Notes: generated by a model from the sequence alone, not told the origin. A stretch of DNA of 64,000 bases from Vampirovibrionales bacterium (GCA_046341215.1 JBKDRU010000007.1:799-64798); one strand, 5' to 3'. Positions 1-50,180 are shown, counted from the first letter of the stretch. Numbers and translations: made by a program.

Positions 1-1713
1 GAAAGTGGCGATAGTTTGCCTTCTTTTGAAATTCGCCTGGAACTCTACGGAACGATAAACGCCGAAAGAAACAACGTGATTTTGGTCTGCCACGCCTTAA
101 CAGGCGATGCCCACTTGGCAGGCAAACATCACGCCGACGACAAAAAATTGGGCTGGTGGGATGATCTCGTCGGTGAAGGCAAAGCCTTTAATCCCGAAAC
201 GCACGCCATTCTTTGCACTCATGTGTTGGGCGGATGCAACGGTTCCACAGGCCCTGAATCCATCAATCCCCAAACCCAAGAGGCTTATCACACCAGCTTT
301 CCACCGATTACGATTGCGGATATGGTGAATGCTCAACACGCCGTCATGCAAGCCCTTCAAGTGGCTCAATGGCATGCCGTTGTGGGCGGTTCAATGGGAG
401 GCTTTCAAGCCCTTGAATGGGGCATTCGTTACCCCAATGCCCTGAAAAAATTGGTGATTGTCGCCAGTGGAGCTTGTTATAGCACGCAAGGCATCGCCTT
501 TAATGCCGTGGGTCGCCATGCCATTATGCACGATCCACAATGGAAGCAGGGACTCTATCAAACGCATGGCACCGAACCAAGGCAAGGGCTAGCCACCGCT
601 CGTATGCTGGCTCATATTACGTATGTCAGCGAAGATAGTTTGGATCAAAAATTTGGACGCTCCTTAATTGAAGGGCAGTCTACTTTACCTGCTCAAGCCC
701 CCGAAGCAGGTACGCCCTTTCAGCCCGAGTTTCAGGTGGAATCGTATTTGGATTATCAAGGGCAGCAGTTTGTGAATCGCTTTGACGCCAATAGCTACCT
801 GTATTTAAGCAAAGCACTTGATGCCTTTGATGTGGTGGAATCGTGGGGTAAAGGAGATCTCAAAACAGCGATGGCTCGCCTTGAAGCCGACTGTTTATTT
901 GTGGCGTACGACACCGACGGCTTGTTCCCACCTAAAGAAACGAAACGCTTGGTGGATGCTTTAGTCACGCTCCACAAACCGCCTTCTGCCCTAACGCTTT
1001 CGACCCCTTGGGGGCATGACGCTTTTTTAATTGACACCGCAGAGCTCAATACCATTATCTCTCCGTTTTTATACGAAGCGACACGGGAACTAAGCAAGAA
1101 ACACAAGACGCCTTTGCTTAATCGTGATGACCTTGACCCGCTACTCAGCTTAATCAACACGCACGACACGGTGCTAGACTTAGGATGCGGTTCGGGGGAT
1201 TTACTCGCCATTTTAAAAGCACAGGGGACGCATCCTCGTTTACTAGGTGTGGAACAGAAAGAAGCGTCGGTGAAAGACGCCTTAAACAAAGGCTTGCCTG
1301 TTTTGCAAGGCGATATGCTTGATACCTTAAAACAGCTCCCTGATGCGTCTTTTGATGTGGCGGTGCTTCACTTGGCGTTACAATCCCTGCAAGATCCTTA
1401 TCGTGTGTTGCAAGAAATGAAGCGAGTCGCCACCCGTTCTGTGATTGGTTTCCCGAACTTTGGCTTCTTACCGATTCGCTTGCAGCTTTTATTACGTGGA
1501 CGCATGCCCACGTCTTCCGCCCTGCCTTACATGTGGTATGATACGCCAAACATCCACCTTTTTACGCTCAAAGATTTCACGACCCTTTCGGATGAGCTGG
1601 GCTTTACGCAGGCTCGGCGGGTGTATCGCTTTGGGGACAGGTGGCAGGCACGCCCTCGTCAGGCGTGGGGCGTGAACTGGCGAGCGTCTTATGCGATTTA
1701 CGAGTTAGTGTAA
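1..1713 (+). CDS. metXW: Homoserine O-acetyltransferase MetX fused to a MetW-like domain; 5' end appears to run off the window
   Basis: The N-terminal part carries MetX motifs (NVILVCHALTGDAH, GGSMGG nucleophile elbow). The C-terminal ~190 aa carries a MetW-like methyltransferase motif (LDLGCGSGDLL). The frame is open back to position 1, and the first listed codon is TTG at 16. Confidence 0.85.
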   Translation, partial: ESGDSLPSFEIRLELYGTINAERNNVILVCHALTGDAHLAGKHHADDKKLGWWDDLVGEGKAFNPETHAILCTHVLGGCNGSTGPESINPQTQEAYHTSFPPITIADMVNAQHAVMQALQVAQWHAVVGGSMGGFQALEWGIRYPNALKKLVIVASGACYSTQGIAFNAVGRHAIMHDPQWKQGLYQTHGTEPRQGLATARMLAHITYVSEDSLDQKFGRSLIEGQSTLPAQAPEAGTPFQPEFQVESYLDYQGQQFVNRFDANSYLYLSKALDAFDVVESWGKGDLKTAMARLEADCLFVAYDTDGLFPPKETKRLVDALVTLHKPPSALTLSTPWGHDAFLIDTAELNTIISPFLYEATRELSKKHKTPLLNRDDLDPLLSLINTHDTVLDLGCGSGDLLAILKAQGTHPRLLGVEQKEASVKDALNKGLPVLQGDMLDTLKQLPDASFDVAVLHLALQSLQDPYRVLQEMKRVATRSVIGFPNFGFLPIRLQLLLRGRMPTSSALPYMWYDTPNIHLFTLKDFTTLSDELGFTQARRVYRFGDRWQARPRQAWGVNWRASYAIYELV

Positions 1714-2334
1714 AACCGCTGTTTCGGCTTGTTTATTCACATATCGCTTATGACACCACGCCAAAACAGCGATGCTTAGCGGAACACTTACCACTAACAA
1801 GGCGTGATTGAGATCTAGCCTAAATTGGGCATTGTCCAAGCTCCACACATAAGGGATGTATATAGGTGTGTCCCAAGGACTTTGCTGATAGACCCGACCC
1901 GCCCCTTCATACAAACAACGAGACAACAGAAATGCCCATACTTCTATTCCCAAAAGCCATACCAAGCTTAGATATTTAGTTACTTTATACACAAACTGCT
2001 TCGTCCAGCCTAAATCTCGGTATAAAAACCACGCATTCACAAAGAAAATGATTTGAATCAATGAAATAAAAGGAACACAATGAAGAGGTGTAAATAACAA
2101 ATGTAAAAAACAATCTAGCAAAAAAAACGAAACTACTCCCACTACAGATTCTAATAGCAGGTCATCAAAACGATGATATTGAATAATTTGCGTTGCTAAA
2201 TTAAGTAAAAGCAAAGCGATTAAACACCACTTGTTTAATCGCATACGACTTAATATCAGGTAGTGAAAGCCGATAAAGCTTATAATGCCTAGCACAAAAA
2301 AAGCATGAAGGATTAAATCTTGGCTGTGTTGCAT
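1705..2334 (-). CDS. Polytopic membrane protein (paralog A of a duplicated cassette), unknown function
   Basis: 209 aa with about 5-6 hydrophobic helices. The C-terminal 45 aa (IPYVWSLDNAQFRLDLNHALLVVSVPLSIAVLAWCHKRY) and the underlying ~120 nt are nearly identical to the next gene. AT-rich. Confidence 0.6.
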   Translation of the reverse strand: MQHSQDLILHAFFVLGIISFIGFHYLILSRMRLNKWCLIALLLLNLATQIIQYHRFDDLLLESVVGVVSFFLLDCFLHLLFTPLHCVPFISLIQIIFFVNAWFLYRDLGWTKQFVYKVTKYLSLVWLLGIEVWAFLLSRCLYEGAGRVYQQSPWDTPIYIPYVWSLDNAQFRLDLNHALLVVSVPLSIAVLAWCHKRYVNKQAETAVLH

Positions 2335-2340
2335 AGTTGT

Positions 2341-2460
2341 ACTTCTTTTATTCTCATAGGTCTATTCTAAAATCCCTTTGGGATAAGTTGACTTTCCTTT
2401 TAAAATGTTTTCAGCTTTTTTGGGAATATCCTTGACACTTATCTTACCATTTTTTAAGTC
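2341..2460. repeat. Copy 1 of a duplicated ~100-bp upstream block (aaaatccctttgggataagttgactttcctttt...cttgacacttatcttaccattttttaagtcatcgc)
   Basis: Near-identical to 3140-3245. Together with the 1741-1860 / 2503-2620 identity this defines a tandem duplication of roughly 780 bp. Confidence 0.85.
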
Positions 2461-3112
2461 ATCGCTCAGCTTGAAACGCTTCTTCCGTTTGACGTTGGAT
2501 GTATCGCTTATGGCACCACGCCAAAACAGCGATGCTTAGCGGAACACTCACCACTAACAAGGCGTGATTGAGATCTAGTCTAAATTGGGCATTGTCTAGG
2601 CTCCACACGTAAGGGATGGCTTTATAGGTGTCAGAATCGACAGAAGCATCCGCACGTAACACAGGGTAAGCCGTCAAAAGAGGCACTTGAATGCCTAAAA
2701 ACCAACGAATTAGTAGATATTGAGAGGTTTTTTTCCAAAAGTCCTTTAGCGTGGCTTCATTTCTATATTTAAACCAAGCTCTCGTCACAAAGGCGACTTG
2801 AACCCCTACCATAAGTAGTAAAATGTAATTCATAGAATAGGTAAAAGGCACATAAATAATCATTAACAGAACAAGTAAAAGACCTAAAATATTTTGTATT
2901 ATTTTACCCATCATCCCCATATTTTCAAAATGTAAATTACCTAGACTACCTCCAATGAGAGGAATGAGAGACTCAGAATCAAGCCAAAGAAAACTTACCA
3001 AAATAAGCATCACCCATAATGCAAGTTTTATTTTTTTCGGTATTTTAAAATAAAATAAGTGAGTGGCAAAGAAGATAAATGCCCCTATATAGCTCCAATC
3101 AATGTCTCTCAT
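2459..3112 (-). CDS. Polytopic membrane protein (paralog B), unknown function
   Basis: 217 aa, multi-TM, with the same conserved C terminus as paralog A. RBS-like GAAGGAAAAAGGAA lies before the ATG. A ~100-bp upstream block is duplicated in front of both genes. Confidence 0.6.
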   Translation of the reverse strand: MRDIDWSYIGAFIFFATHLFYFKIPKKIKLALWVMLILVSFLWLDSESLIPLIGGSLGNLHFENMGMMGKIIQNILGLLLVLLMIIYVPFTYSMNYILLLMVGVQVAFVTRAWFKYRNEATLKDFWKKTSQYLLIRWFLGIQVPLLTAYPVLRADASVDSDTYKAIPYVWSLDNAQFRLDLNHALLVVSVPLSIAVLAWCHKRYIQRQTEEAFQAER

Positions 3113-3139
3113 TTCCTTTTTCCTTCAAAACTTAATATA

Positions 3140-3245
3140 ATTTTCTAAAATCCCTTTGGGATAAGTTGACTTTCCTTTTAAAATGCTTTCTGCTTTTTTA
3201 GGAAATTCTTTGACACTTATCTTACCATTTTTTAAGTCATCGCCC
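3140..3245. repeat. Copy 2 of the duplicated upstream block
   Basis: Direct sequence identity with 2341-2460. Confidence 0.85.
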
Positions 3246-3331
3246 AACTTATACGCTTGAACAGAAAGATCCCAATCTTGTTTACTACCGACAGTTTAAA
3301 GGATTGAACAGTGCATAAAACACACTATTTT

Positions 3332-3856
3332 TTATCGGCAGGCTTGACAAGTCCCTCGCAAGACCAGCTCTTCGATAAAGGGTAAATCGCCCTTCTTGGC
3401 ATCCCCTAGCAAGGTCGACAAATCCACCGCCACCTCATAGCATTCCACCCGATGACAGAGGCTACACACAAAATGCGGATGATGCGTATGCACCGAATGC
3501 GGATGCCCCACCTCGCAATGCACGGCTTCACACGCATGAGATGGATCTTCCAGCACATGCGGATTCAAACTAAACCGCCACACATTGTCCCCAAAATGGT
3601 GACGCAAACACACGTTCATTTCCACCAAGTACATCAAATTACGATACAAGGTCGCTCGATCAAAGCCCTTGTCTTCCAAGGCTTGCACGACATCCGCTAG
3701 GCTAAGAGGCGTCTTGCTATTTAAGATCGTCGTCAACACCTCGACACGAGACGCCGTCGTTCTTAAATCCAAGGCGTGCAAAATGCCTTTTGCCGTCAGT
3801 GTTGAAGGTAAGGTGGCTTCTGTCGTGGGTGAAGCAAAATCAAGCGTCGTCTTCAC
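3332..3856 (-). CDS. Fur-family metal-responsive transcriptional regulator (Fur/Zur/PerR subtype not resolved)
   Basis: Winged-helix N-terminal domain followed by a His/Cys metal-site cluster (HCEVGHPHSVHTHHPHFVCSLCHRVEC). There is an unusual ~30-aa N-terminal extension. Confidence 0.85.
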   Translation of the reverse strand: MKTTLDFASPTTEATLPSTLTAKGILHALDLRTTASRVEVLTTILNSKTPLSLADVVQALEDKGFDRATLYRNLMYLVEMNVCLRHHFGDNVWRFSLNPHVLEDPSHACEAVHCEVGHPHSVHTHHPHFVCSLCHRVECYEVAVDLSTLLGDAKKGDLPFIEELVLRGTCQACR

Positions 3857-3859
3857 AGA

Positions 3860-5131
3860 TTAGGCTCCCATCCACACGCTGGGGTCTAAGTCCTTCAAGT
3901 AGCTGGTGACTTGCTCTTCAATGGAAGGAGCACCCGACTTCTTAGCTTTTTCAGCCAGCTTGGCGATGCGTGCGGCGTCTCGCTTGTCTTTTTCAGACTG
4001 CTTAAACGCTGCCATCGCTCCATTTTTAAGGGATTGCACATCGTTATAACGCAATTCACGATGTTCCCCTGGTTTTAGACCCGACAACTGAAACGCCCCA
4101 ATCGCAATACGCTTGAGTGCCACAACATCATAACCGCAGGCTTCAAACATGCGTCGCACTTGGCGATACATGCCCGAATTGAGGCTCACGCCCCAAATCG
4201 TGGGCTTCACCATAAAGACTTCAACCGCTTGAGCCAACTGCTTTTCGCCTTCAAGCTGAATGCCTTCTAAGAAGCGTTGTGCCAAGCGTTCGGGGTTTTC
4301 CACCGCACGATCCAGCTCCACCCGATACACCTTCGTTAAGTGATATTTCGGATGCGTCAATAGATTCACCATGTCGCCGTCATTGGTCAACAATAGCAAG
4401 CCTGTGCTGTTACGATCCAAGCGACCGATGGGTTTCAAGCCTTTTAAGTCTTCAGGCAACACGTCGTAAATCGTGCGACGCCCACGTTCGTCGGAACGTG
4501 TGGTGATGCAGTCCTTGGGCTTGTTCATCACAATGGTACGAATGCGTTGCTGGGTTTTGATCAACTCGCCTTTGACTTCAATGCGGACGCTTTGGGGCTT
4601 TTCAATCAGCAAGCCCAATTCCGTGACTTTTTTGCCGTTCAGCGTGACTTTGCCAGCTTCAATCAGGGCATCGGCTTGGCGACGGGAATAGGTCGAAAAG
4701 TTGGCAATCAGCTTGTTGATTCGTGTGCCTTCTTGGGCGACGACTTCATCGGGGCGTTTGGACGTTCGTAAGGGTTTAGAAGGGGGGCTTGCCTTTTTAG
4801 AGGCTGACCCTCGTTCCGCTTCAAACGTGCTGGATTGAGCGGTTGCGGATTTAGACTTCACGCGTTTAGCAGGTTTCATAAACTGGCTAAATTGATGCGT
4901 CTTTTTGTTGGTGGCGTCGCTGGATTTCTCGCTTTTGGCGGATTTCGCCGTTTTAACAGACGCTTCGGCTTTGCCTGCTTTGGAGGCGGACTTTTTACGT
5001 TCTTCGGCGATAATGGCGTCCCAGTTGAGGGTTTCGCCTTTTTTCGCTTTGCTGCGAACTTTTTTGGCGGTGGTACGTTCTTGCAAGGGCAGAACGTCGT
5101 GGGTGAAGGCGGATCGTTGTTTCGTGGTCAT
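3860..5131 (-). CDS. rluB: RluB/RsuA-family rRNA pseudouridine synthase with a ~150-aa Lys/Ala/Ser-rich N-terminal extension
   Basis: S4 domain (RINKLIANFSTYSRRQADALIEAGKVTLNGK) and catalytic motif GRLDRNSTGLLLLTNDGD. The N terminus is low-complexity and K-rich. Confidence 0.8.
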   Translation of the reverse strand: MTTKQRSAFTHDVLPLQERTTAKKVRSKAKKGETLNWDAIIAEERKKSASKAGKAEASVKTAKSAKSEKSSDATNKKTHQFSQFMKPAKRVKSKSATAQSSTFEAERGSASKKASPPSKPLRTSKRPDEVVAQEGTRINKLIANFSTYSRRQADALIEAGKVTLNGKKVTELGLLIEKPQSVRIEVKGELIKTQQRIRTIVMNKPKDCITTRSDERGRRTIYDVLPEDLKGLKPIGRLDRNSTGLLLLTNDGDMVNLLTHPKYHLTKVYRVELDRAVENPERLAQRFLEGIQLEGEKQLAQAVEVFMVKPTIWGVSLNSGMYRQVRRMFEACGYDVVALKRIAIGAFQLSGLKPGEHRELRYNDVQSLKNGAMAAFKQSEKDKRDAARIAKLAEKAKKSGAPSIEEQVTSYLKDLDPSVWMGA

Positions 5132-5343
5132 ATTGAAGAACCTTGAGGGTTAGGCTGATTCACATCAGTCTGTAATGAATTCAGTTCCATTGTATAGTAA
5201 GCACGTTTGCACCGCAAGGCTTTGTTTGAGATGAAAGCTGATGAAGCAAAACGTGGGTTTTACGCACTAGGCGAAGGCTTGAAAAGGTGTCATACTGAAA
5301 CAGAGTGGCTCTTTGAAAACGGCATAGATGCGTCCAAACCGAC

Positions 5344-5514
5344 GACTTTCGTGGCCAGAAATCGGACTTTCGTGGCCAGAAATCAGACTTTTGTGGCCAG
5401 AAATCGGACTTTCGTGGCCAAAAAACAGACTTTCGTGGCCAAAAAACAGACTTTTGTGGGTCGAAAAGTCGACTTTTGTGGGTCGAAAAGTCGACTTTTG
5501 TGGGTCGAAAAAGA
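5344..5514. repeat. Tandem array of about 8 units of 21-22 bp (gactttcgtggccagaaatcg and variants)
   Basis: Contiguous head-to-tail repeats in three subtypes (..ccagaaatcg x3, ..ccaaaaaaca x2, ..gggtcgaaaagtc x2-3) with no spacers. Intergenic, about 210 bp upstream of the rluB start and 3' of typA. Confidence 0.9.
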
Positions 5515-5563
5515 CGCCTTTCTTGATGAAAAACGTCTTTTCTAAATGCTTAATTTTTTAAAA

Positions 5564-7375
5564 TTAACCTTTGAAGTTCAAGTTAGCCTTACGCAAACGA
5601 ATGCTCTTAGGCGTGACTTCCATGAGTTCATCTTGAGCGATGAAATCTAAGCCAAACTCAAGGGTCACAGGGATCGGCACTTGAAGTACGTCCATGACAT
5701 CGGCCCCTGCACTTCGCATGTTGGTGAGCTGCTTGGCTTTCGCCACATTCACCGCTAAATCGCTTTGACGGTTGTATTCGCCAATAATCATGCCACGATA
5801 CACATATTCACGAGGACTCACAAAGAAACGCCCACGATCTTCCAGCTTTTTCAAGGAATACGCCGTTGCATCCCCCGCTTCGTTGGCGATAATGGCGCCG
5901 TTGCGGGTCTGGTTCATCTCACCAGCCCATGGCTCGTAACTCGCAAACGAAGCGTTCATAATGCCTTCGCCTTTAGTCATACGGATGAACTCTGAGCGAA
6001 AACCCAATAGTCCACGAGACGGCACAAAGAACTCAAGGGTGGTGCGTCCGTTTTCGCTGTACATGTTACGCAATTCGCCCTTACGCTGACTGCTCAAGCG
6101 TTCGATGCAGGTTCCGCTACAATCTTCAGGGACATCCAACAACACGGATTCAAACGGCTCGTGCTTGGCACCGTTGATTTCTTTCACCAAAACTTCAGGC
6201 TTGGATACTTGAAACTCGTAACCTTCACGACGCATGGTTTCAATCAAAATCGTTAAGTGAAGCTCTCCACGCCCTGAAACGACAAAGGCATCGGCACTGT
6301 CACCGTCGAGGACTCGCAAGGCCACGTTGGTGCGGATCTCACGATACAAACGATCACGCAACTGACGGCTGGTGACAAACTTGCCTTCTTTACCAGCCAA
6401 CGGGCTGGTATTGATGCTAAAGGTCATCTGCAAGGTAGGCTCTTCAATGTCGATCAAAGGCAGTGGATTCGGGTGTTCCACGTGGCAAATGGTCTCACCA
6501 ATCGTCGCTTCGCTGATGCCTGCCACCGCCACGATGTCGCCTGCGATGCCGACTTCCGCTTCAATACGCTTTAAGCCTTCAAAGGTAAACACTTTGACGA
6601 TGCGGTGCTTTTCAACCGTGCCTTCACGGGTACACAAAGCGATTTGCTGCCCGACGTTGATCGTGCCTGACTTGATGCGTCCGATACAGATACGCCCTAA
6701 ATAGTCGTTGTAATCAAGCGTAGAGACTTGAAGTTGCAAGGGGGCATCCAAAATAGCAGGAGGCACAGGCACATGCTCTAAAATGCTTTGAAACAGTGGC
6801 TCTAGGCTTTCTTGAGGGCCGTCATGCGTTAGAGACGACGTACCAGCCAAGCCACACGCAAAGACGACAGGAAACTCAAGCTGATCTTCATCGGCACCGA
6901 GTTCGATCAACAAGTCAATGACTTGATCCACGGCACGAAGCGGTTCCGCCGCAGGGCGATCCACTTTATTGACAACAACCAAGACTTTCAACTTGTTTTC
7001 TAGAGCCTTACGAAGCACGAAGCGAGTTTGAGGCATAGGGCCTTCAACGGCATCCACAACCAAAAGGGCAGCGTCGACCATGGTCAAAACACGTTCGACT
7101 TCACCTGAAAAGTCGGCGTGACCGGGGGTGTCCAAAATGTTGATGCGGTAGCCGTTGTAAGGAATGGCGGTGTTTTTCGCCAAAATGGTAATGCCACGTT
7201 CACGTTCAAGGTCGTTGGAATCCATCATGCGTTCGCTGGTGGCTTCGTTGTCTCTGAAAATACCGCTTTGTTTGAACATGCTGTCCACCAGCGTGGTTTT
7301 GCCGTGGTCAACGTGTGCGATAATCGCAATGTTTCTAATTTTGTCCGTGGTTAGTTCGAGCATTTGAGCGTTCAT
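5564..7375 (-). CDS. typA: Ribosome-associated translational GTPase TypA/BipA
   Basis: G-domain AHVDHGKTTLVD, DTPGHADF, NKVD; 603 aa with EF-G-like architecture. Confidence 0.9.
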   Translation of the reverse strand: MNAQMLELTTDKIRNIAIIAHVDHGKTTLVDSMFKQSGIFRDNEATSERMMDSNDLERERGITILAKNTAIPYNGYRINILDTPGHADFSGEVERVLTMVDAALLVVDAVEGPMPQTRFVLRKALENKLKVLVVVNKVDRPAAEPLRAVDQVIDLLIELGADEDQLEFPVVFACGLAGTSSLTHDGPQESLEPLFQSILEHVPVPPAILDAPLQLQVSTLDYNDYLGRICIGRIKSGTINVGQQIALCTREGTVEKHRIVKVFTFEGLKRIEAEVGIAGDIVAVAGISEATIGETICHVEHPNPLPLIDIEEPTLQMTFSINTSPLAGKEGKFVTSRQLRDRLYREIRTNVALRVLDGDSADAFVVSGRGELHLTILIETMRREGYEFQVSKPEVLVKEINGAKHEPFESVLLDVPEDCSGTCIERLSSQRKGELRNMYSENGRTTLEFFVPSRGLLGFRSEFIRMTKGEGIMNASFASYEPWAGEMNQTRNGAIIANEAGDATAYSLKKLEDRGRFFVSPREYVYRGMIIGEYNRQSDLAVNVAKAKQLTNMRSAGADVMDVLQVPIPVTLEFGLDFIAQDELMEVTPKSIRLRKANLNFKG

Positions 7376-7639
7376 AGGGGCATCTTTCTGGGTAAGCTAG
7401 CAGTGACGCCAGCGTGAGGGGGTTAATAAGGGAAAGCAAAATACCTTACAGTATACTCTTATTAAAACGCAAACATAAAATAATGTGAAGGGGGCGTTTT
7501 TTCTAAATAAAATCCTGCTTATTGCCCTTTAAGGGGAGGGCGTGAAGCGTAACCCCTTGACAAAGGTTGACAGATTTGCCACAATATAAAAAGGGGGAGT
7601 CCCCAAGTGTGTAAGACTTGAAGACTCCACGCTATCTTC

Positions 7640-7699
7640 TTAGTTTTTTAGGACTAATAAGAAGATTATCAACAGAATGATGGTTTCTGATGTAATCAT
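7640..7699 (-). CDS. Candidate 19-aa hydrophobic small peptide (MITSETIILLIIFLLVLKN)
   Basis: Strong RBS GGAGGTGAGCTAAA immediately 5' of the ATG. A single TM-like peptide. A hairpin plus T-run lies downstream on the minus strand. Confidence 0.3.
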   Translation of the reverse strand: MITSETIILLIIFLLVLKN

Positions 7700-7888
7700 T
7701 TTAGCTCACCTCCTTTCTGTACAGAACGGGGGTGTTGCTATATAAGCAACCCTTTTAAGGCTTTATTTACTTTAACACAAAGGTATCGTTTTTGAAACGC
7801 CATCCTAAGCCCTCTTGTAAAGTCACTTACTTGACAAGATAAAGCACTTTTGTCATACTTTTATAATCAAGTAAAGGTTCAAATCCGT

Positions 7889-8188
7889 ATGACACGAGAC
7901 AATGAATTGGTCGATTATAAAGGCAGTGAATTGACGCTTGCCCAAGTGATTAAGGCTCATCGTGAATGTGAAGGTTGGACGCTTGAAGAAGCGGCTCAAA
8001 AATTAGGGATGAGTCGACAAGCCCTGCATCAATATGAATCGGGGGCAGGTTTGCCTAGTATTGAACAGACCATACGGCTTGCCAATGGCTTGGGTGCGAT
8101 GCCTGATATGTGGCTGATTTACCGTATTGAAGCGGAACTTAGAAACCAAGGCATGGACTACAAAGTGATTCTCAAACGCCGTGCGTAG
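7889..8188 (+). CDS. XRE-family helix-turn-helix transcriptional regulator
   Basis: HTH_3-like segment LTLAQVIKAHRECEGWTLEEAAQKLGMSRQALHQYESG. The ORF could begin at 7850, but the ATG at 7889 has a better context. Confidence 0.7.
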   Translation: MTRDNELVDYKGSELTLAQVIKAHRECEGWTLEEAAQKLGMSRQALHQYESGAGLPSIEQTIRLANGLGAMPDMWLIYRIEAELRNQGMDYKVILKRRA

Positions 8189-9985: not shown

Positions 9986-11401
9986 ATGACCTACTCATAC
10001 AATTCAACCAATAATATTAGCAATGGGAGCAAGCTTCCTGTTGGGGAACGCCCCTTGCCAAACGTGGAACAGATCGAACCTATTGATTTAAGTCAGTTTA
10101 GAAACGTCGAACCGCAAAGCTCTCGCAATGGCATTGTTGATCTAAAAGAAAGCGGTCTCTTCCGTTTTGACGAACCCCTTCAAAAGGCCACGCTTCGCTC
10201 TTCAGGCAAAGCCCAAAGCTATTTTAAAAATAACGTCAACCGACTGGACATGTATGGCACGAATCGTGACAGCTTCAATCAATCTATGGTTGAAGGCAAT
10301 GTGCAAAGCTTGGGGCAAATGGGCGAAAATGGGTCATCTAACGACGTTCACATACTCGGTGACCTGGGTGGTAGCTTTCAATCAAGCCATCAAAACGCTC
10401 GTAACGAAGTCTTGGTTCAAGGAAAAGTCTATTCTGCCATTATGAATGGCGAACAGGATGCCACGAATCGATTCACCGCAGGCTCCGTCGGAGACATGGC
10501 ATTGGGAGGATCAGAGGCTTCTCTCGTAGGAGGTTCTAGAAATGATGCCGTTGTGCTGGGCAAAACCCAGCGACTTTTAACCGCTGACTATAATGGCTTG
10601 TCTTCAGGGCAGTTTTACGGCGGTGTTCATCAGTGGGAAGATAGTGCTGTTAATGCCACGACGCAGATTTTAGCCGAAAACATGGGCAAAGTCTACTTGG
10701 AAGGACAAGGCAATCGAAACCATGTGCTGGTCAATAAAGGCATCAAAGAGCTAGGTATTGGGGAAGTCGCCAACGGCAATACAAACACCATTACGGCAAA
10801 TGGAGGCATTGAACGCTTTGGCTTGCTCGGTAAAAACAATGAAAGTAAAATCTTTAGTTTTTCTGGTGCAAAAGCATCTGAAGCGGTCTTGCAGGGTACA
10901 AAGAATACAACCTTGTATGGTGGAAATGGCCAACAAACCGTTCGTGTTGGAGGTAGTAACAATGACAGTATTATTGCCACCAGCGATTTGACTGGCCGTA
11001 AATTTAAGTCAGATTATGACCGCAAAGTCTTTGAAGCTAAACAAAAAGATACCTTAGAACTCGGCGGCACAGGCAATAAAGTCCAAGCCGACTTAGGCGT
11101 GGGTAATGATGATATTTTCGTGCATGCGGGTACCAAAAATAAGGACAATCAATTTGAAATTGTGGGTGGAGCAGGGCAAGACGTTATGACCCTTGAAGGG
11201 ACGAAACAGGATTGGAAATCGGTTCGCAATCAAGATGGTAGTTTGACTTTTACGCATCGTCGTCTCAATCAAGCCGTCACCGTTGCAGATGTGGAAGATA
11301 TTCGTTTCAGTAAGAAAATTGATTCTAGTAAAATAGGTTTTAAGACTCCTCCTGCTGAAGAGAGGCAATTGAATTTACCCGGACCCACTTGGCTCGTTTA
11401 G
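9986..11401 (+). CDS. Gly/Asn-rich secreted repeat protein with RTX-like (GGxGxDxUx-type) nonapeptides; likely T1SS substrate or adhesin
   Basis: Motifs GGSRNDAVV, GGSNNDSII, GVGNDDIFV and GGAGQDVMT. No N-terminal signal peptide. Low-complexity N/S-rich N terminus. Confidence 0.5.
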   Translation: MTYSYNSTNNISNGSKLPVGERPLPNVEQIEPIDLSQFRNVEPQSSRNGIVDLKESGLFRFDEPLQKATLRSSGKAQSYFKNNVNRLDMYGTNRDSFNQSMVEGNVQSLGQMGENGSSNDVHILGDLGGSFQSSHQNARNEVLVQGKVYSAIMNGEQDATNRFTAGSVGDMALGGSEASLVGGSRNDAVVLGKTQRLLTADYNGLSSGQFYGGVHQWEDSAVNATTQILAENMGKVYLEGQGNRNHVLVNKGIKELGIGEVANGNTNTITANGGIERFGLLGKNNESKIFSFSGAKASEAVLQGTKNTTLYGGNGQQTVRVGGSNNDSIIATSDLTGRKFKSDYDRKVFEAKQKDTLELGGTGNKVQADLGVGNDDIFVHAGTKNKDNQFEIVGGAGQDVMTLEGTKQDWKSVRNQDGSLTFTHRRLNQAVTVADVEDIRFSKKIDSSKIGFKTPPAEERQLNLPGPTWLV

Positions 11402-47210: not shown

Positions 47211-50180
47211 CTAAACAGGCACAACGCTCGTCAAAGTCGGATCAATTAAACGCTTGCCCGCTTTTTCAAAGACGATTGAAAGCACTTTGCGATTTTCAAT
47301 ATCTACCACAGAATGCACCACGCCTACACCGTACACCTCATGCTGTACTTCCATACCAGGTGAATAATCTACAACCGTTTGTGTAGGGGTAGGGAGCATA
47401 GGCACAGGCTCTTGATATTCGTACAAAGGCACGTGTGCAACAGGCACGCCATCTAAAGAATAGGGCGGGGTAATGGCAGGCATGTGAGAAGCGTCTGCAA
47501 GCGTCCGCATGGGAGCCATCTGATTATATTGATTGCCCTTTAAAGGCACATAACCACTGTCCATTTCGGCTAACTCTTGTTGAAAAGACTGAATCAAGTC
47601 GTCTTCCGCTAATGACGCTTCATCATAAGCTGGAACTAAGAATTCAGGCATTCCTGTAGGCACCTGTTCTTCAGCAGTTACGGAAACATCTTCTTCAACG
47701 ACAGGGGAAGCTTCGTGCGTCATTTCAAAAGAAAAGCCCGCGAGCGGATCTTCAGGGTCTATTTTAGGAACGGTATTGGCCTCTTCATGCCCCATAAAGT
47801 CTTCAGAAGAAACAGGGTATTCGCTTACCATATCATTAAATTCAGTATGCACGGCTTTTTCAATAATGTTTAAATCAAAGCTAAAATTGTCCAAGTCTTC
47901 TAATTGTAAGCTTTCGACTTCAACGGCTTGATGCACAGGTAAGCTCACATTCCCTGCTTGAACGGCGTCAAAGACGCTGGTCATTTCTTCTAGTTGTTCT
48001 TGGGGATTAAAATGGCTTGGCGCACTAGGCAAAAAGGCATCGTCTTCAGTAGCTTGAGGGGAACGGCCTTCAATGATCGGTTCATTCAATAAGTCATCAT
48101 AAAATCCTTCGCTTTCAAACTCTAAAGATTCTTCAAGCGCCAAAGGACTTTCTTCTGCGGTGAAATCCTCGGTCAAATCCAAGCTAAAATCAGGCACATC
48201 TAAGTGAGCTTCAGGGGCAAGTGGGCTTGACATCAGTTCTAAAGAAGCTTCGACAGGCTGTTCTGAAGAAAGAGTTTGCATAGTTTCTAGAGTCGATCGA
48301 TCTATAATGGGACCTAGTAAACTACTGGGTAGTAGATCTGGTGTAGGCTCCTGAAAACTTTCATCAGGAGCGGGTACATAATAGGGATCAAAATCCTGCC
48401 CAAACATGGACTCATCTTGATACAAGGTTTGTTCCAAGGCTTCTTCGGTGCTTTGAGGCTTACGTTTTAGCTCTTCTTTACCGTCAATAATGTATTCCAT
48501 GTGGAGTACGGCTTTTTCAGGCTCATCAAAACCCGAATCGGCAGATTCATCCAAGTAAGGGGTGACGTCTTCTAGCATGGAATCAGGCAAGCAAGGGTGA
48601 ATGTGATGTGTACTGTCTATTTCTTCGGACGTATCTATAGGGGCTGGATCCTCTTCGCCCTTAGAAGGATTCAACAAAGGGGCTTCAAGAAAAGTTTGCC
48701 ATTCTTCAGGCATTTCGCCTAAAATTGAATTGTAATGATGCACTTCTTCTTCAGCGGGATGGGCTTGAAGGGTTTCTAAAACGGGGGGGTTGTCTGAAGT
48801 TTTCAAATCAGAAGAAAAAGAGCTTAAAACGTCATCATGCGATTCATCGAAAGAACGATCCATTGCTTTATAGGGAGCGGCTTCAACAGAAGGGGGCTCG
48901 ATGGCTTGAAACGGTGTGGAAGACGGATCTTCTATAGGTTTTTCGGATTCAGATGAGCGTTTCAAAGGAGCGAACACTTCTAAAGGGGGCAAAGCAGGAA
49001 AATCACCGAATAGAAGGGGGATGCCCAGCGTCAATTCACTTAAGAATAAGGCTGTGGATTGACTGGCATTCACCTGTAAGAGATGTTGCTCACCCGCTTT
49101 TAGAGCGTCCGCCATAGGCTCTTTGTGTAAAGGGTGCAGATTCACAACATTCACGCCTTGTTCCAATAGCTGATGCACTTCATGTTCAACTAAAGTGGGT
49201 AAAGTCTTGTTACGACTAATATTACCAACCAGTATATTGCTTAAAGGCAACATACTATGACGCAACGCTTGATTCAAAAGTTCCCAAATCCACGCATGAA
49301 AATCAACGCTTACACTAGAAAGATCCAGTACAAGGAGCTTACCTTCACTTTCGGCGTGCTTCAGTTCTTGCATAAAATGGACGCTTTGTTGATGTTCCCC
49401 TTCGCAAAAGACTTTGCTCGCCTTACATTGATTCAACAAGCGAAAGAGCAAGCCACTTTGGGTGCTTAAAAAAACTTCTTCGAGTTCACGCAAACTTTGA
49501 ACCCTGAAAATACGTTGCCCTGCAATGCTGTTCCATTGTTTCCAAGCTTCTTCGGCTTGTGTGGGAGCTAAGGCTTTCGTCCAGGACTCAATGAGACGCT
49601 CCACCCCCCATGCTTCCACAGGAAATGCGTGGGTACGCCCCAGTTCCACCAAGTGAATCCCCGGTAATTGACTGCGTTTTAAAAGCCCGTAGCCATCGAA
49701 AAGCAAGGGGTGCATGCCTTCTTGACGTGCATTTAACAATAGGGAAAGTAAGAGTTCAAGTCCTCGTTCTTCTTGATCCGATTCCAAACGGAGTTGCCCG
49801 TAAACGTCACGCATTAAAATACGTAGGGCAGGGAATTGTAGATCGATAAGGGACGCTTCTGGTGTATTCAATAGAAGCGCTGCGAGTCGCTCAGCAGAAA
49901 CACGAAAGAAAGACTGCACATTTAAAACAGGCACACCATAAACAGGGCTCAAATGCAGGCGAGCTTCTGTATTTGTGGCGCTTTCAATGTCCGTAATTTT
50001 CAAGAGTTGACGGCGATTTTGGGCATCCACGGCAAGGACAAGGGCATTGAGCACCAAGGCATCGGCTTGAGCGTGGGGAATTTCAAGCAATACGTTTGAG
50101 TTGTGACGGCTAAAGTGAATAAAGTCCAACGCCTCTGGCATTAAATCATCTAAGTTTAAGGCATTTAATGCAAAGCTCAC
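47211..50180 (-). CDS. 989-aa protein: ~450-aa folded N-terminal domain, ~480-aa hyper-acidic (D/E/P/S) disordered region, C-terminal UvrD-C-like Tudor-fold domain
   Basis: C terminus VQHEVYGVGVVHSVVDIENRKVLSIVFEKAGKRLIDP matches the pattern of the UvrD/PcrA C-terminal domain (xRHxxFGxGxVxxxxGxxxxxVxFxxxGxKxL). The N-terminal domain is unrecognised. Confidence 0.6.
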   Translation of the reverse strand: MSFALNALNLDDLMPEALDFIHFSRHNSNVLLEIPHAQADALVLNALVLAVDAQNRRQLLKITDIESATNTEARLHLSPVYGVPVLNVQSFFRVSAERLAALLLNTPEASLIDLQFPALRILMRDVYGQLRLESDQEERGLELLLSLLLNARQEGMHPLLFDGYGLLKRSQLPGIHLVELGRTHAFPVEAWGVERLIESWTKALAPTQAEEAWKQWNSIAGQRIFRVQSLRELEEVFLSTQSGLLFRLLNQCKASKVFCEGEHQQSVHFMQELKHAESEGKLLVLDLSSVSVDFHAWIWELLNQALRHSMLPLSNILVGNISRNKTLPTLVEHEVHQLLEQGVNVVNLHPLHKEPMADALKAGEQHLLQVNASQSTALFLSELTLGIPLLFGDFPALPPLEVFAPLKRSSESEKPIEDPSSTPFQAIEPPSVEAAPYKAMDRSFDESHDDVLSSFSSDLKTSDNPPVLETLQAHPAEEEVHHYNSILGEMPEEWQTFLEAPLLNPSKGEEDPAPIDTSEEIDSTHHIHPCLPDSMLEDVTPYLDESADSGFDEPEKAVLHMEYIIDGKEELKRKPQSTEEALEQTLYQDESMFGQDFDPYYVPAPDESFQEPTPDLLPSSLLGPIIDRSTLETMQTLSSEQPVEASLELMSSPLAPEAHLDVPDFSLDLTEDFTAEESPLALEESLEFESEGFYDDLLNEPIIEGRSPQATEDDAFLPSAPSHFNPQEQLEEMTSVFDAVQAGNVSLPVHQAVEVESLQLEDLDNFSFDLNIIEKAVHTEFNDMVSEYPVSSEDFMGHEEANTVPKIDPEDPLAGFSFEMTHEASPVVEEDVSVTAEEQVPTGMPEFLVPAYDEASLAEDDLIQSFQQELAEMDSGYVPLKGNQYNQMAPMRTLADASHMPAITPPYSLDGVPVAHVPLYEYQEPVPMLPTPTQTVVDYSPGMEVQHEVYGVGVVHSVVDIENRKVLSIVFEKAGKRLIDPTLTSVVPV

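Follow-up and report, generated by a model that had tools for sequence, protein, structure and literature searches.

Contact-dependent inhibition (CDI; cdiA-CT/cdiI) and Rhs systems are polymorphic two-gene cassettes in which a huge conserved N-terminal delivery region is followed by a C-terminal (CT) toxin domain that varies as a whole. Downstream of the main locus, orphan modules with toxin-gene fragments keep the variable toxin CT, and recombination at conserved sequence replaces cassettes. Type VI secretion system (T6SS) clusters of Vibrio cholerae contain orphan immunity arrays formed by sequential effector displacement, in which effector 3′ ends were kept (Kirchberger et al., 2017; PMC5361080). 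Immunity paralogues of the type VII secretion systems (T7SS) of Firmicutes (esaG, tipC) recombine via homology blocks, and strings of polytopic tsaI genes adjoin the membrane-depolarising toxin TspA (Garrett et al., 2022; PMC9484751). Here, we describe a locus of this general kind in a stretch of 64,000 nucleotides from a Vampirovibrionales bacterium (GCA_046341215.1 JBKDRU010000007.1:799-64798), hereafter called the window. It carries two tandem genes for membrane proteins, M_A and M_B, each preceded by the 3′ remnant of a partner gene, X, which is intact directly 5′ of M in about a dozen related Vampirovibrionales loci. With about even confidence, X–M is read from the sequence comparison as a polymorphic effector–immunity module of Vampirovibrionales, of which the window would keep only two orphan immunity genes.

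The X–M loci resembled the V. cholerae arrays in that modules are exchanged between strains by homologous recombination and that old immunity-type genes and 3′-end fragments of the partner are kept; the benefit proposed for V. cholerae is protection against kin still carrying the old effector. They differed in lacking T6SS or other secretion genes nearby, in their unrelated and unannotated protein families, in their host order, and in the use of the invariant C-terminal third of M itself for crossover. As with the T7SS immunity paralogues, tandem non-identical genes are bounded by short blocks of high nucleotide identity through which recombination gives gain, loss and chimeras, and TsaI is a multi-pass membrane protein, as is M. 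However, no LXG/T7SS toxin was present, M was unlike EsaG (DUF600), TipC and TsaI in Pfam scans, only two copies occurred, and one of the homology blocks lay in the 3′ end of the putative toxin gene rather than in the immunity gene. Compared to CDI and Rhs, what is retained here as a relic is the extreme C-terminal tail, which is conserved, and variation in the small X protein is limited to a loop of ~35 aa.

Likeness was also found to CPBP/Abi-type and other membrane bacteriocin-immunity proteins, which are small, polytopic, toxin-adjacent and sometimes present in several copies. The preliminary description of the window had named CPBP/Abi and small transporter families as candidates for searches, and membership of them was not borne out: M matched neither PF02517, the family marked by EExxxR, FxxxH and HxxxB motifs, nor any other Pfam or NCBIfam model at E <= 10 (0 of 18 M family members for Pfam), and X is not a small secreted bacteriocin peptide. 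The immunity-gene array that it also named has remained the best functional analogy. While the kind of system is thus already known (polymorphic two-gene cassettes, orphan immunity genes, effector relics), the X and M families are new, unannotated and confined to Vampirovibrionales, and their architecture is unusual: in X, a variable loop lies between a conserved body and a conserved tail, and in the immunity-like M, a variable core is joined to an invariant C-terminal third. The evolutionary anatomy of the locus is solid, its function inferred.

Organization of the locus and loss of the partner gene

The order of elements in the window was Fur-family gene, X relic, M_B, X relic, M_A and, convergent to these, metXW (Table 1). 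A repeat finder and pairwise alignment showed two pairs of direct repeats. One lay just 5′ of each M gene (2365-2472 and 3143-3250; 108 nt, 93% identity) and the other comprised the 3′ coding ends of M (159 nt, 84% identity), with spacings of 778 and 760 nt, respectively. Within the 3′ block, a 117-nt core encoding IPYVWSLDNAQF...HKRY was 94% identical between M_A and M_B at the nucleotide level, and all 39 encoded residues were the same. Probes of 32 and 47 nt from the blocks had exactly two matches each in the 64 kb, for a chance expectation of 0.00. The N-terminal parts could not be aligned over residues 1–~90 and were about 40–50% identical over residues ~93–150. The tandem unit with near-identical 5′ block and 3′ coding end and a divergent middle, as first described from the sequence, was thereby confirmed, as was its character of AT-rich accessory DNA: G+C content was 0.38 in both M genes (0.29–0.35 in their cores) vs. 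0.51 in neighbouring genes and 0.46 in the whole window. A ribosome-binding site (AAGGA) was located 5 nt 5′ of the M_B ATG, and the 3′ end of M_A overlapped the end of metX-metW by 9 nt.

Table 1. Features of the X–M locus and its neighbours in the window (positions counted from the first letter of the window).
Feature	Position	Strand	Description
M_A	1705..2334	-	Intact 209-aa polytopic membrane protein, type-A N-terminal core (open reading frame call)
M_B	2459..3112	-	Intact 217-aa polytopic membrane protein, type-B1 core (open reading frame call)
Conserved C-terminal block of M_A	1714..1872	-	IPYVWSLDNAQF...HKRY and tail; right-hand recombination anchor
Conserved C-terminal block of M_B	2474..2632	-	Second copy of the right-hand anchor
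X relic 1	3128..3295	-	Last 56 codons of X (residues 191-246 and stop), in-frame stop before; 5′ ~190 codons deleted
X relic 2	2365..2481	-	Last ~39 codons of X (residues ~203-241 and stop); no start codon; out of frame onto the M_B 3′ end
Deletion junction	3292..3293		blastn colinearity with L009 breaks here
Fur-family regulator gene	3332..3856	-	PF01475 at 35.6 bits; 5′ of M_B, co-directional, outside the module
metX-metW fusion	16..1713	+	Convergent neighbour of M_A

The closest relative, L009 (compared loci are designated by L numbers), is an independent metagenome-assembled genome (MAG) with the order Fur, X, M_B, short block, M_A and metXW. Because it has the same M_B–relic–M_A arrangement at 89.5% identity, the tandem repeat is not an assembly artefact, a possibility that had been raised at the outset. 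M_B was 96% identical to its L009 counterpart, which lies directly 3′ of an intact X. M_A was 92% identical to that of L009 and 78–83% identical to the orthologues in L005, L011 and L028, which likewise directly follow an intact X. The L009 M_A gene (~5125-5165) had a poly-T tract of T6 vs. T7 in the window (~2296-2302) at codon ~12, shifting the frame of the L009 gene, for which an assembly error, pseudogenisation or switching by slippage could account.

The block repeated upstream of each M gene, which had been taken for a gene flank, is instead the leftover 3′ end of the deleted partner gene X, and so coding debris rather than intergenic DNA. The C-terminus of the L009 X (...GSKQDFDLSVQAYKLGDDLKNGKISVKEFPKKAESILKGKSTYPKGILENYIKF) is exactly what the upstream block of the window encodes. 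By tblastn, X relic 1 was 96% identical to the L009 X and 100% identical over 51 aa to the L005 X, X relic 2 was 82–85% identical to X C-termini, and these two 3′ relics were the only X content mapped in the window. The window and L009 were colinear (93.9% and 89.5% identity) save for 600 bp missing from the window (L009 3561-4160), corresponding to the rest of the Fur–X spacer and X codons 1–~190. A 40-codon open reading frame in the upstream block (3125..3247) was considered as a real small gene and rejected: it is the in-frame X tail, has no conserved start, its second copy is without a start, and it is frameshifted in L027.

L001 had the same deletion junction within about 3 nt, while its Fur and RluB genes differed from those of the window at a synonymous divergence (dS) of 0.22–0.30; it carried a single M, only 59% identical to M_B, and a different right flank. 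The junction between M_B tail and X relic was common to the window, L009 and L027, as seen by alignment and three-frame translation, with L027 situated at another chromosomal locus. Given the frameshift of the L027 relic, these remnants are not kept as coding sequence; 107 of 117 nt of the relic were identical in the window and L009, which is roughly the neutral level of difference. By extension, where "conserved promoter blocks" precede tandem genes, they may be what is left, as a pseudogene, of a partner that was lost.

Distribution of the X–M pair and exchange of cassettes

The population picture was built on 28 fetched loci, about 15 of them distinct, because nothing was returned from viral_contigs or from metagenome_contigs, the latter scanned first with protein patterns and then with a degenerate DNA pattern. 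The M family comprised 13 clusters at 90% identity among 5.8 billion proteins and 6 clusters at 50% identity among 1.84 billion, and all genome matches were Vampirovibrionales MAGs, with Lake Mendota among the source waters. No further relatives were reached by a profile built from 13 X sequences. X had no tblastn match in collections of phages and plasmids, so there is no evidence for a phage or plasmid origin.

Intact X followed by M on the same strand, with a gap of 9–33 nt or a short overlap, was found in L005, L009, L011, L014, L015, L018, L020 (two pairs), L022, L023, L025 and L028. M without intact X, preceded only by X 3′ relics, was found in the window (two genes), L001, L009 and L027, and no intact X lacked a downstream M among the distinct loci. 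Five genomic contexts were distinguished: between the Fur-like gene and metXW or an S26 peptidase gene, 5′ of PFK, beside a MacB/OEP efflux operon, beside a TPR gene and NADH-dehydrogenase genes, and near MlaE in the distant relative L020. Throughout, the modules were poorer in G+C than their flanks (0.34–0.43 vs. 0.44–0.51). Copy number and core type both varied between strains, as the proposal of a variable array had anticipated.

X is a soluble protein of ~230 aa (198–246 aa over these loci; 236–246 aa in the description of L009). From the N-terminus, it has a beta-hairpin (WVTINGxPVLI), a linker rich in G, K and S, a helical core that is conserved, a hypervariable loop of ~35 aa and a Lys-rich tail of ~50 aa, also conserved. 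The AlphaFold model (pLDDT 74, pTM 0.73) showed an all-alpha protein apart from this hairpin, with the linker disordered and a body of nine helices; the hypervariable segment (residues ~157–181) was the only internal stretch modelled with low confidence. M is a helical protein of ~210 aa with about five transmembrane spans, in which the N-terminal two-thirds vary and the C-terminal third is almost invariant. Its structure model was too uncertain to interpret (pTM 0.34); by the positive-inside rule, the invariant acidic/aromatic loop IPYVWSLDNAQFxxDLNH probably faces the periplasm.

Some loci had further genes. In L020 (4335-7260), a tandem of two unlike modules was present, in the order X′ (347 aa), M′ (177 aa), X and M; X′ is a paralogue of X that shares the N-terminal hairpin motif and contains a long insert, and M′ is M-like. 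At the Fur locus of L028 (2657-6193), X and a type-A M were followed by a gene for 198 aa and two IS1595-family transposase genes; the latter are a possible route for moving modules between loci. A conserved accessory gene beside X–M was sought, and none emerged: the neighbours of 76, 200, 214, 251 and 263 aa had no Pfam matches, and direct comparison of neighbour pairs (251 vs. 263 aa, 251 vs. 214 aa) showed no similarity.

Exchange of cassettes was seen most directly between L011 and L014 at the same locus. Overall, their flanks agreed at 97.4% and 98.4% of positions, and fully (100%) over about 500 nt on each side, while identity across the module was 32–74% in the X loop, 90–98% in the X tail, 34–56% over M codons 1–~165 and 94–100% in the conserved M block. 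The cassette swapped between near-identical strains is the variable loop of X together with M codons 1–165. X-loop type and M-core type mostly went together: var1 with core B1 (L009, L014), var2 with A (L005, L011, L028), var3 with A′ (L015) and var4 with B2 (L018, L022, L025). The exception was L021, in which var2 was joined to B1: it was 99.9% identical to L011 up to X codon 241 and then continued with a B1-type M start instead of an A-type M, the contig ending 72 nt into M. Since X relic 1 of the window was identical to the intact X end of L021 at 163 of 165 nt, the ancestor of the window may have had the order X(var2), M_B1, relic, M_A.

The extreme M tail followed the chromosomal locus and not the core type (...KQAETAVLH at the Fur/metXW locus, ...NQHSCKESP at the PFK locus, each on A and B cores). 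With every one of the four core/tail combinations present, the right-hand crossover must fall within the conserved M block. This block was 86–97% identical at the nucleotide level over all alleles of close relatives, whatever their N-terminal type, and in it the M_A of the window was closer to M_B (94.0%) and to the M of L001 (95.7%) than to its own L009 orthologue (88.9%). Conserved X sequence and the C-terminal M block thus act in practice as homologous-recombination anchors, both between strains and between loci, and the direct repeats formed by X tails and M ends would allow gain or loss of units, or chimeras, by unequal crossing-over. The suggestion of a cassette-type locus diversifying by recombination through conserved blocks is upheld by the L011/L014 swap. 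That of a simple duplicate which later diverged is not, as the M_A and M_B cores are different alleles, each also found singly in other genomes. The locus is an unusually clean natural example of how an immunity-type array may form, with a 600-bp deletion of shared junction, swaps between 100%-identical flanks and anchors inside both genes.

Nonsynonymous to synonymous rate ratios (dN/dS) between the window and L009 were 0.32 for M_A and 0.22 for M_B, compared to 0.08–0.10 for Fur, RluB and MetXW. The orphan M genes are under purifying selection, looser than that on housekeeping genes. X and M changed faster between alleles, with dN/dS of 0.28–0.55.

A proposed effector–immunity function and its alternatives

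As an effector–immunity module, X would be a polymorphic effector or toxin against which M, embedded in the membrane, gives immunity, and the X loop and M core would determine specificity. The window strain would have lost the toxin gene at this locus by the 600-bp deletion and kept two orphan immunity genes, which would protect it against neighbours still making X variants. We favour this reading because of the tight X–M pairing, the matched variable parts and the allele replacement between identical flanks; because several types occur per genome or sample, in AT-rich DNA and at multiple loci; because M occurs without X and X never without M; and because the orphan M genes stay constrained and the X-deleted state persists across diverged lineages. 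If true, it would give a first handle on genes for interbacterial or predator–prey warfare in Vampirovibrionia, a poorly known, mostly uncultured group related to Cyanobacteria, and would add two protein families without detectable relatives or known fold.

Several observations weigh against an effector–immunity module. Neither X nor M, nor the longer paralogue X′, had significant matches in Pfam, NCBIfam, PHROGs, PADLOC (best E-value 0.031 for X, X′ or M), PDB sequence and profile searches, or Foldseek searches of PDB and BFVD. No toxin, trafficking or immunity domain was recognisable in X or M; in particular, X lacked trafficking domains of the PAAR/VgrG, LXG, CdiB, Rhs, MuF and XVIPCD types, as well as a signal peptide or transmembrane segment. 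Secretion-system genes were linked neither in the flanks of any locus read nor among ten large open reading frames of the window that were scanned. X departs from classical polymorphic toxins in that variation is limited to a short loop and most of the protein is conserved; the coupling of X loop and M core is not strict (L021), and gene-wide dN/dS of X and M stays below 1. An intact X may also be present elsewhere in the genome, outside the 64 kb. The best Foldseek match of the X model in PDB or BFVD had a TM-score of 0.35 at E = 3.5. A DUF6973 phage protein in BFVD was considered as a relative of X and dropped as insignificant (TM-scores 0.27/0.35, E = 3.5).

More tentatively, and below even confidence, X could be secreted by predatory or epibiotic Vampirovibrionales as an effector of new fold that acts on bacteria or possibly on algae. 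Its ~35-aa loop would then be recognised by the variable transmembrane bundle of M, and a constant contact and/or an export signal would come from the Lys-rich X tail and from the invariant IPYVWSLDNAQF loop of M, which probably faces the periplasm. The N-terminal hairpin and the Lys-rich C-terminal tail of X are candidate signals only. Two published observations serve as leads only: Vampirovibrio has been reported to encode a type IV secretion system (PMC4451040), and some effectors of such systems use a conserved C-terminal recognition domain (PMC11253643). We found no paper in the literature connecting Vampirovibrionales with toxin–immunity systems. A secreted effector would make this the first system for effector–immunity or kin recognition to be reported from the sister lineage of Cyanobacteria that lacks photosynthesis.

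Among the alternatives, the one that survived best, though still unlikely, is an ordinary physiological role for X–M as a membrane complex peculiar to this lineage, in which, for instance, X is a soluble enzyme or regulator that docks on its membrane partner. The tandem M genes would then be simple paralogues, X would have been lost by neutral decay, and the mosaic would result from gene conversion among the paralogues, with no part in conflict. The lack of toxin or immunity signatures in both proteins fits such a complex, as do the gene-wide dN/dS below 1 and the strong conservation of most of X and of the C-terminal third of M, regions in which, as in enzymes, many polar residues (H, E, D, N) are invariant. 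However, a housekeeping pair would be expected neither at five loci nor in DNA that is AT-rich relative to the genome, and the replacement of alleles between 100%-identical flanks, two different copies per genome or sample, the one-sided retention of M and the absence of the family outside one order would all be unexpected.

Two further alternatives are both improbable, to a similar degree. X–M could be an anti-phage or abortive-infection pair in which X is a variable sensor, M a membrane-disrupting effector and the orphan M genes inert leftovers. Two-gene modules with a transmembrane effector are common among defence systems, and the module is accessory, AT-rich, multi-locus and strain-variable. 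Yet the searches gave no PADLOC or PHROG matches, no defence-island neighbours were seen, the flanks being housekeeping genes, and exchange of allelic cassettes with matched parts is typical of toxin–immunity or recognition pairs rather than of defence. Inert effectors should also decay, whereas the orphan M genes retain dN/dS of 0.22–0.32 and the X-deleted, M-intact state is common to lineages separated by dS of about 0.25. Equally doubtful is a pair that recognises kin or self, like Proteus IdsD/IdsE, in which the variable region of a transferred protein is read by that of a recipient membrane protein and sets social behaviour instead of killing. Matched variable segments in a soluble protein and in the transmembrane region of a membrane protein, allele swapping between close strains and the possibility of several M types per genome agree with it. 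Against it, no Ids homology, linked T6SS or evidence of X transfer was found; sequence alone does not separate this pair from a toxin–immunity pair. Finally, M as a membrane toxin (holin-like or type-I/toxin–antitoxin-like) with X as its antitoxin, a pairing that a small two-gene operon with a membrane protein might suggest, is very improbable and is contradicted by the deletion of X while both M genes of the window are intact and constrained, likewise in L001, because loss of an antitoxin with an active toxin kept should be lethal.

Neighbouring genes and other features of the window

The Fur-family gene had been described as convergent to the module and as the sign of a possible metal-linked function. 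It is co-directional with the M genes, and the convergent neighbour is metX-metW. A metal or Fur link was not sustained: no Fur box was found in the window with up to 3 mismatches allowed, no palindromes or inverted repeats occurred in the repeated blocks, and the five contexts of X–M are unrelated. Because the module also occurs at four other loci without a Fur gene, the adjacency reflects synteny, not function. A sigma-70 promoter scan of the repeated blocks gave chance-level matches, none of them on the minus strand within the relics, and an Rfam scan of positions 1-8000 gave nothing relevant. Since no terminator-like site was found on the minus strand between 3332 and 2334, read-through from the Fur-like gene into M_B and M_A is plausible, and the orphan M genes would probably be transcribed in this way.

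The Fur-family protein is itself atypical, with 174 aa, an N-terminal extension of ~25 aa and a His-rich stretch (HPHSVHTHHPH), and it scored far under the NCBIfam cut-offs for Fur and PerR equivalogs. On the other side of the module, metX (homoserine O-acetyltransferase-like hydrolase) and metW were joined in one open reading frame of 565+ aa, a fusion also present in L009, L022 and L025. Between the window and L009, dS was much higher for metXW (0.73) than for Fur and RluB (0.21–0.24), which hints at a recombination boundary at the M_A/metXW junction.

The rest of the window is housekeeping chromosome (TrpE, ResB, H+-PPase, RadA, UvrB, Lpd). Four large open reading frames had no Pfam match at E <= 1e-5: 41941-43500, 43779-45362 and 47211-50180 on the - strand and 9986-11401 on the + strand (519, 527, 989 and 471 aa, respectively). 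The RluB–BipA intergenic region (5344-5511) held about 7.5 copies of a 21/22-nt tandem repeat, GACTTTCGTGGCCAGAAATCA grading into GACTTTTGTGGGTCGAAAAGTC, with only a sub-threshold Rfam match. Arrays of the same motif were present in L001 (3668-3773), L025 (1652-1842) and L018 (1113-1284), once at a different locus.

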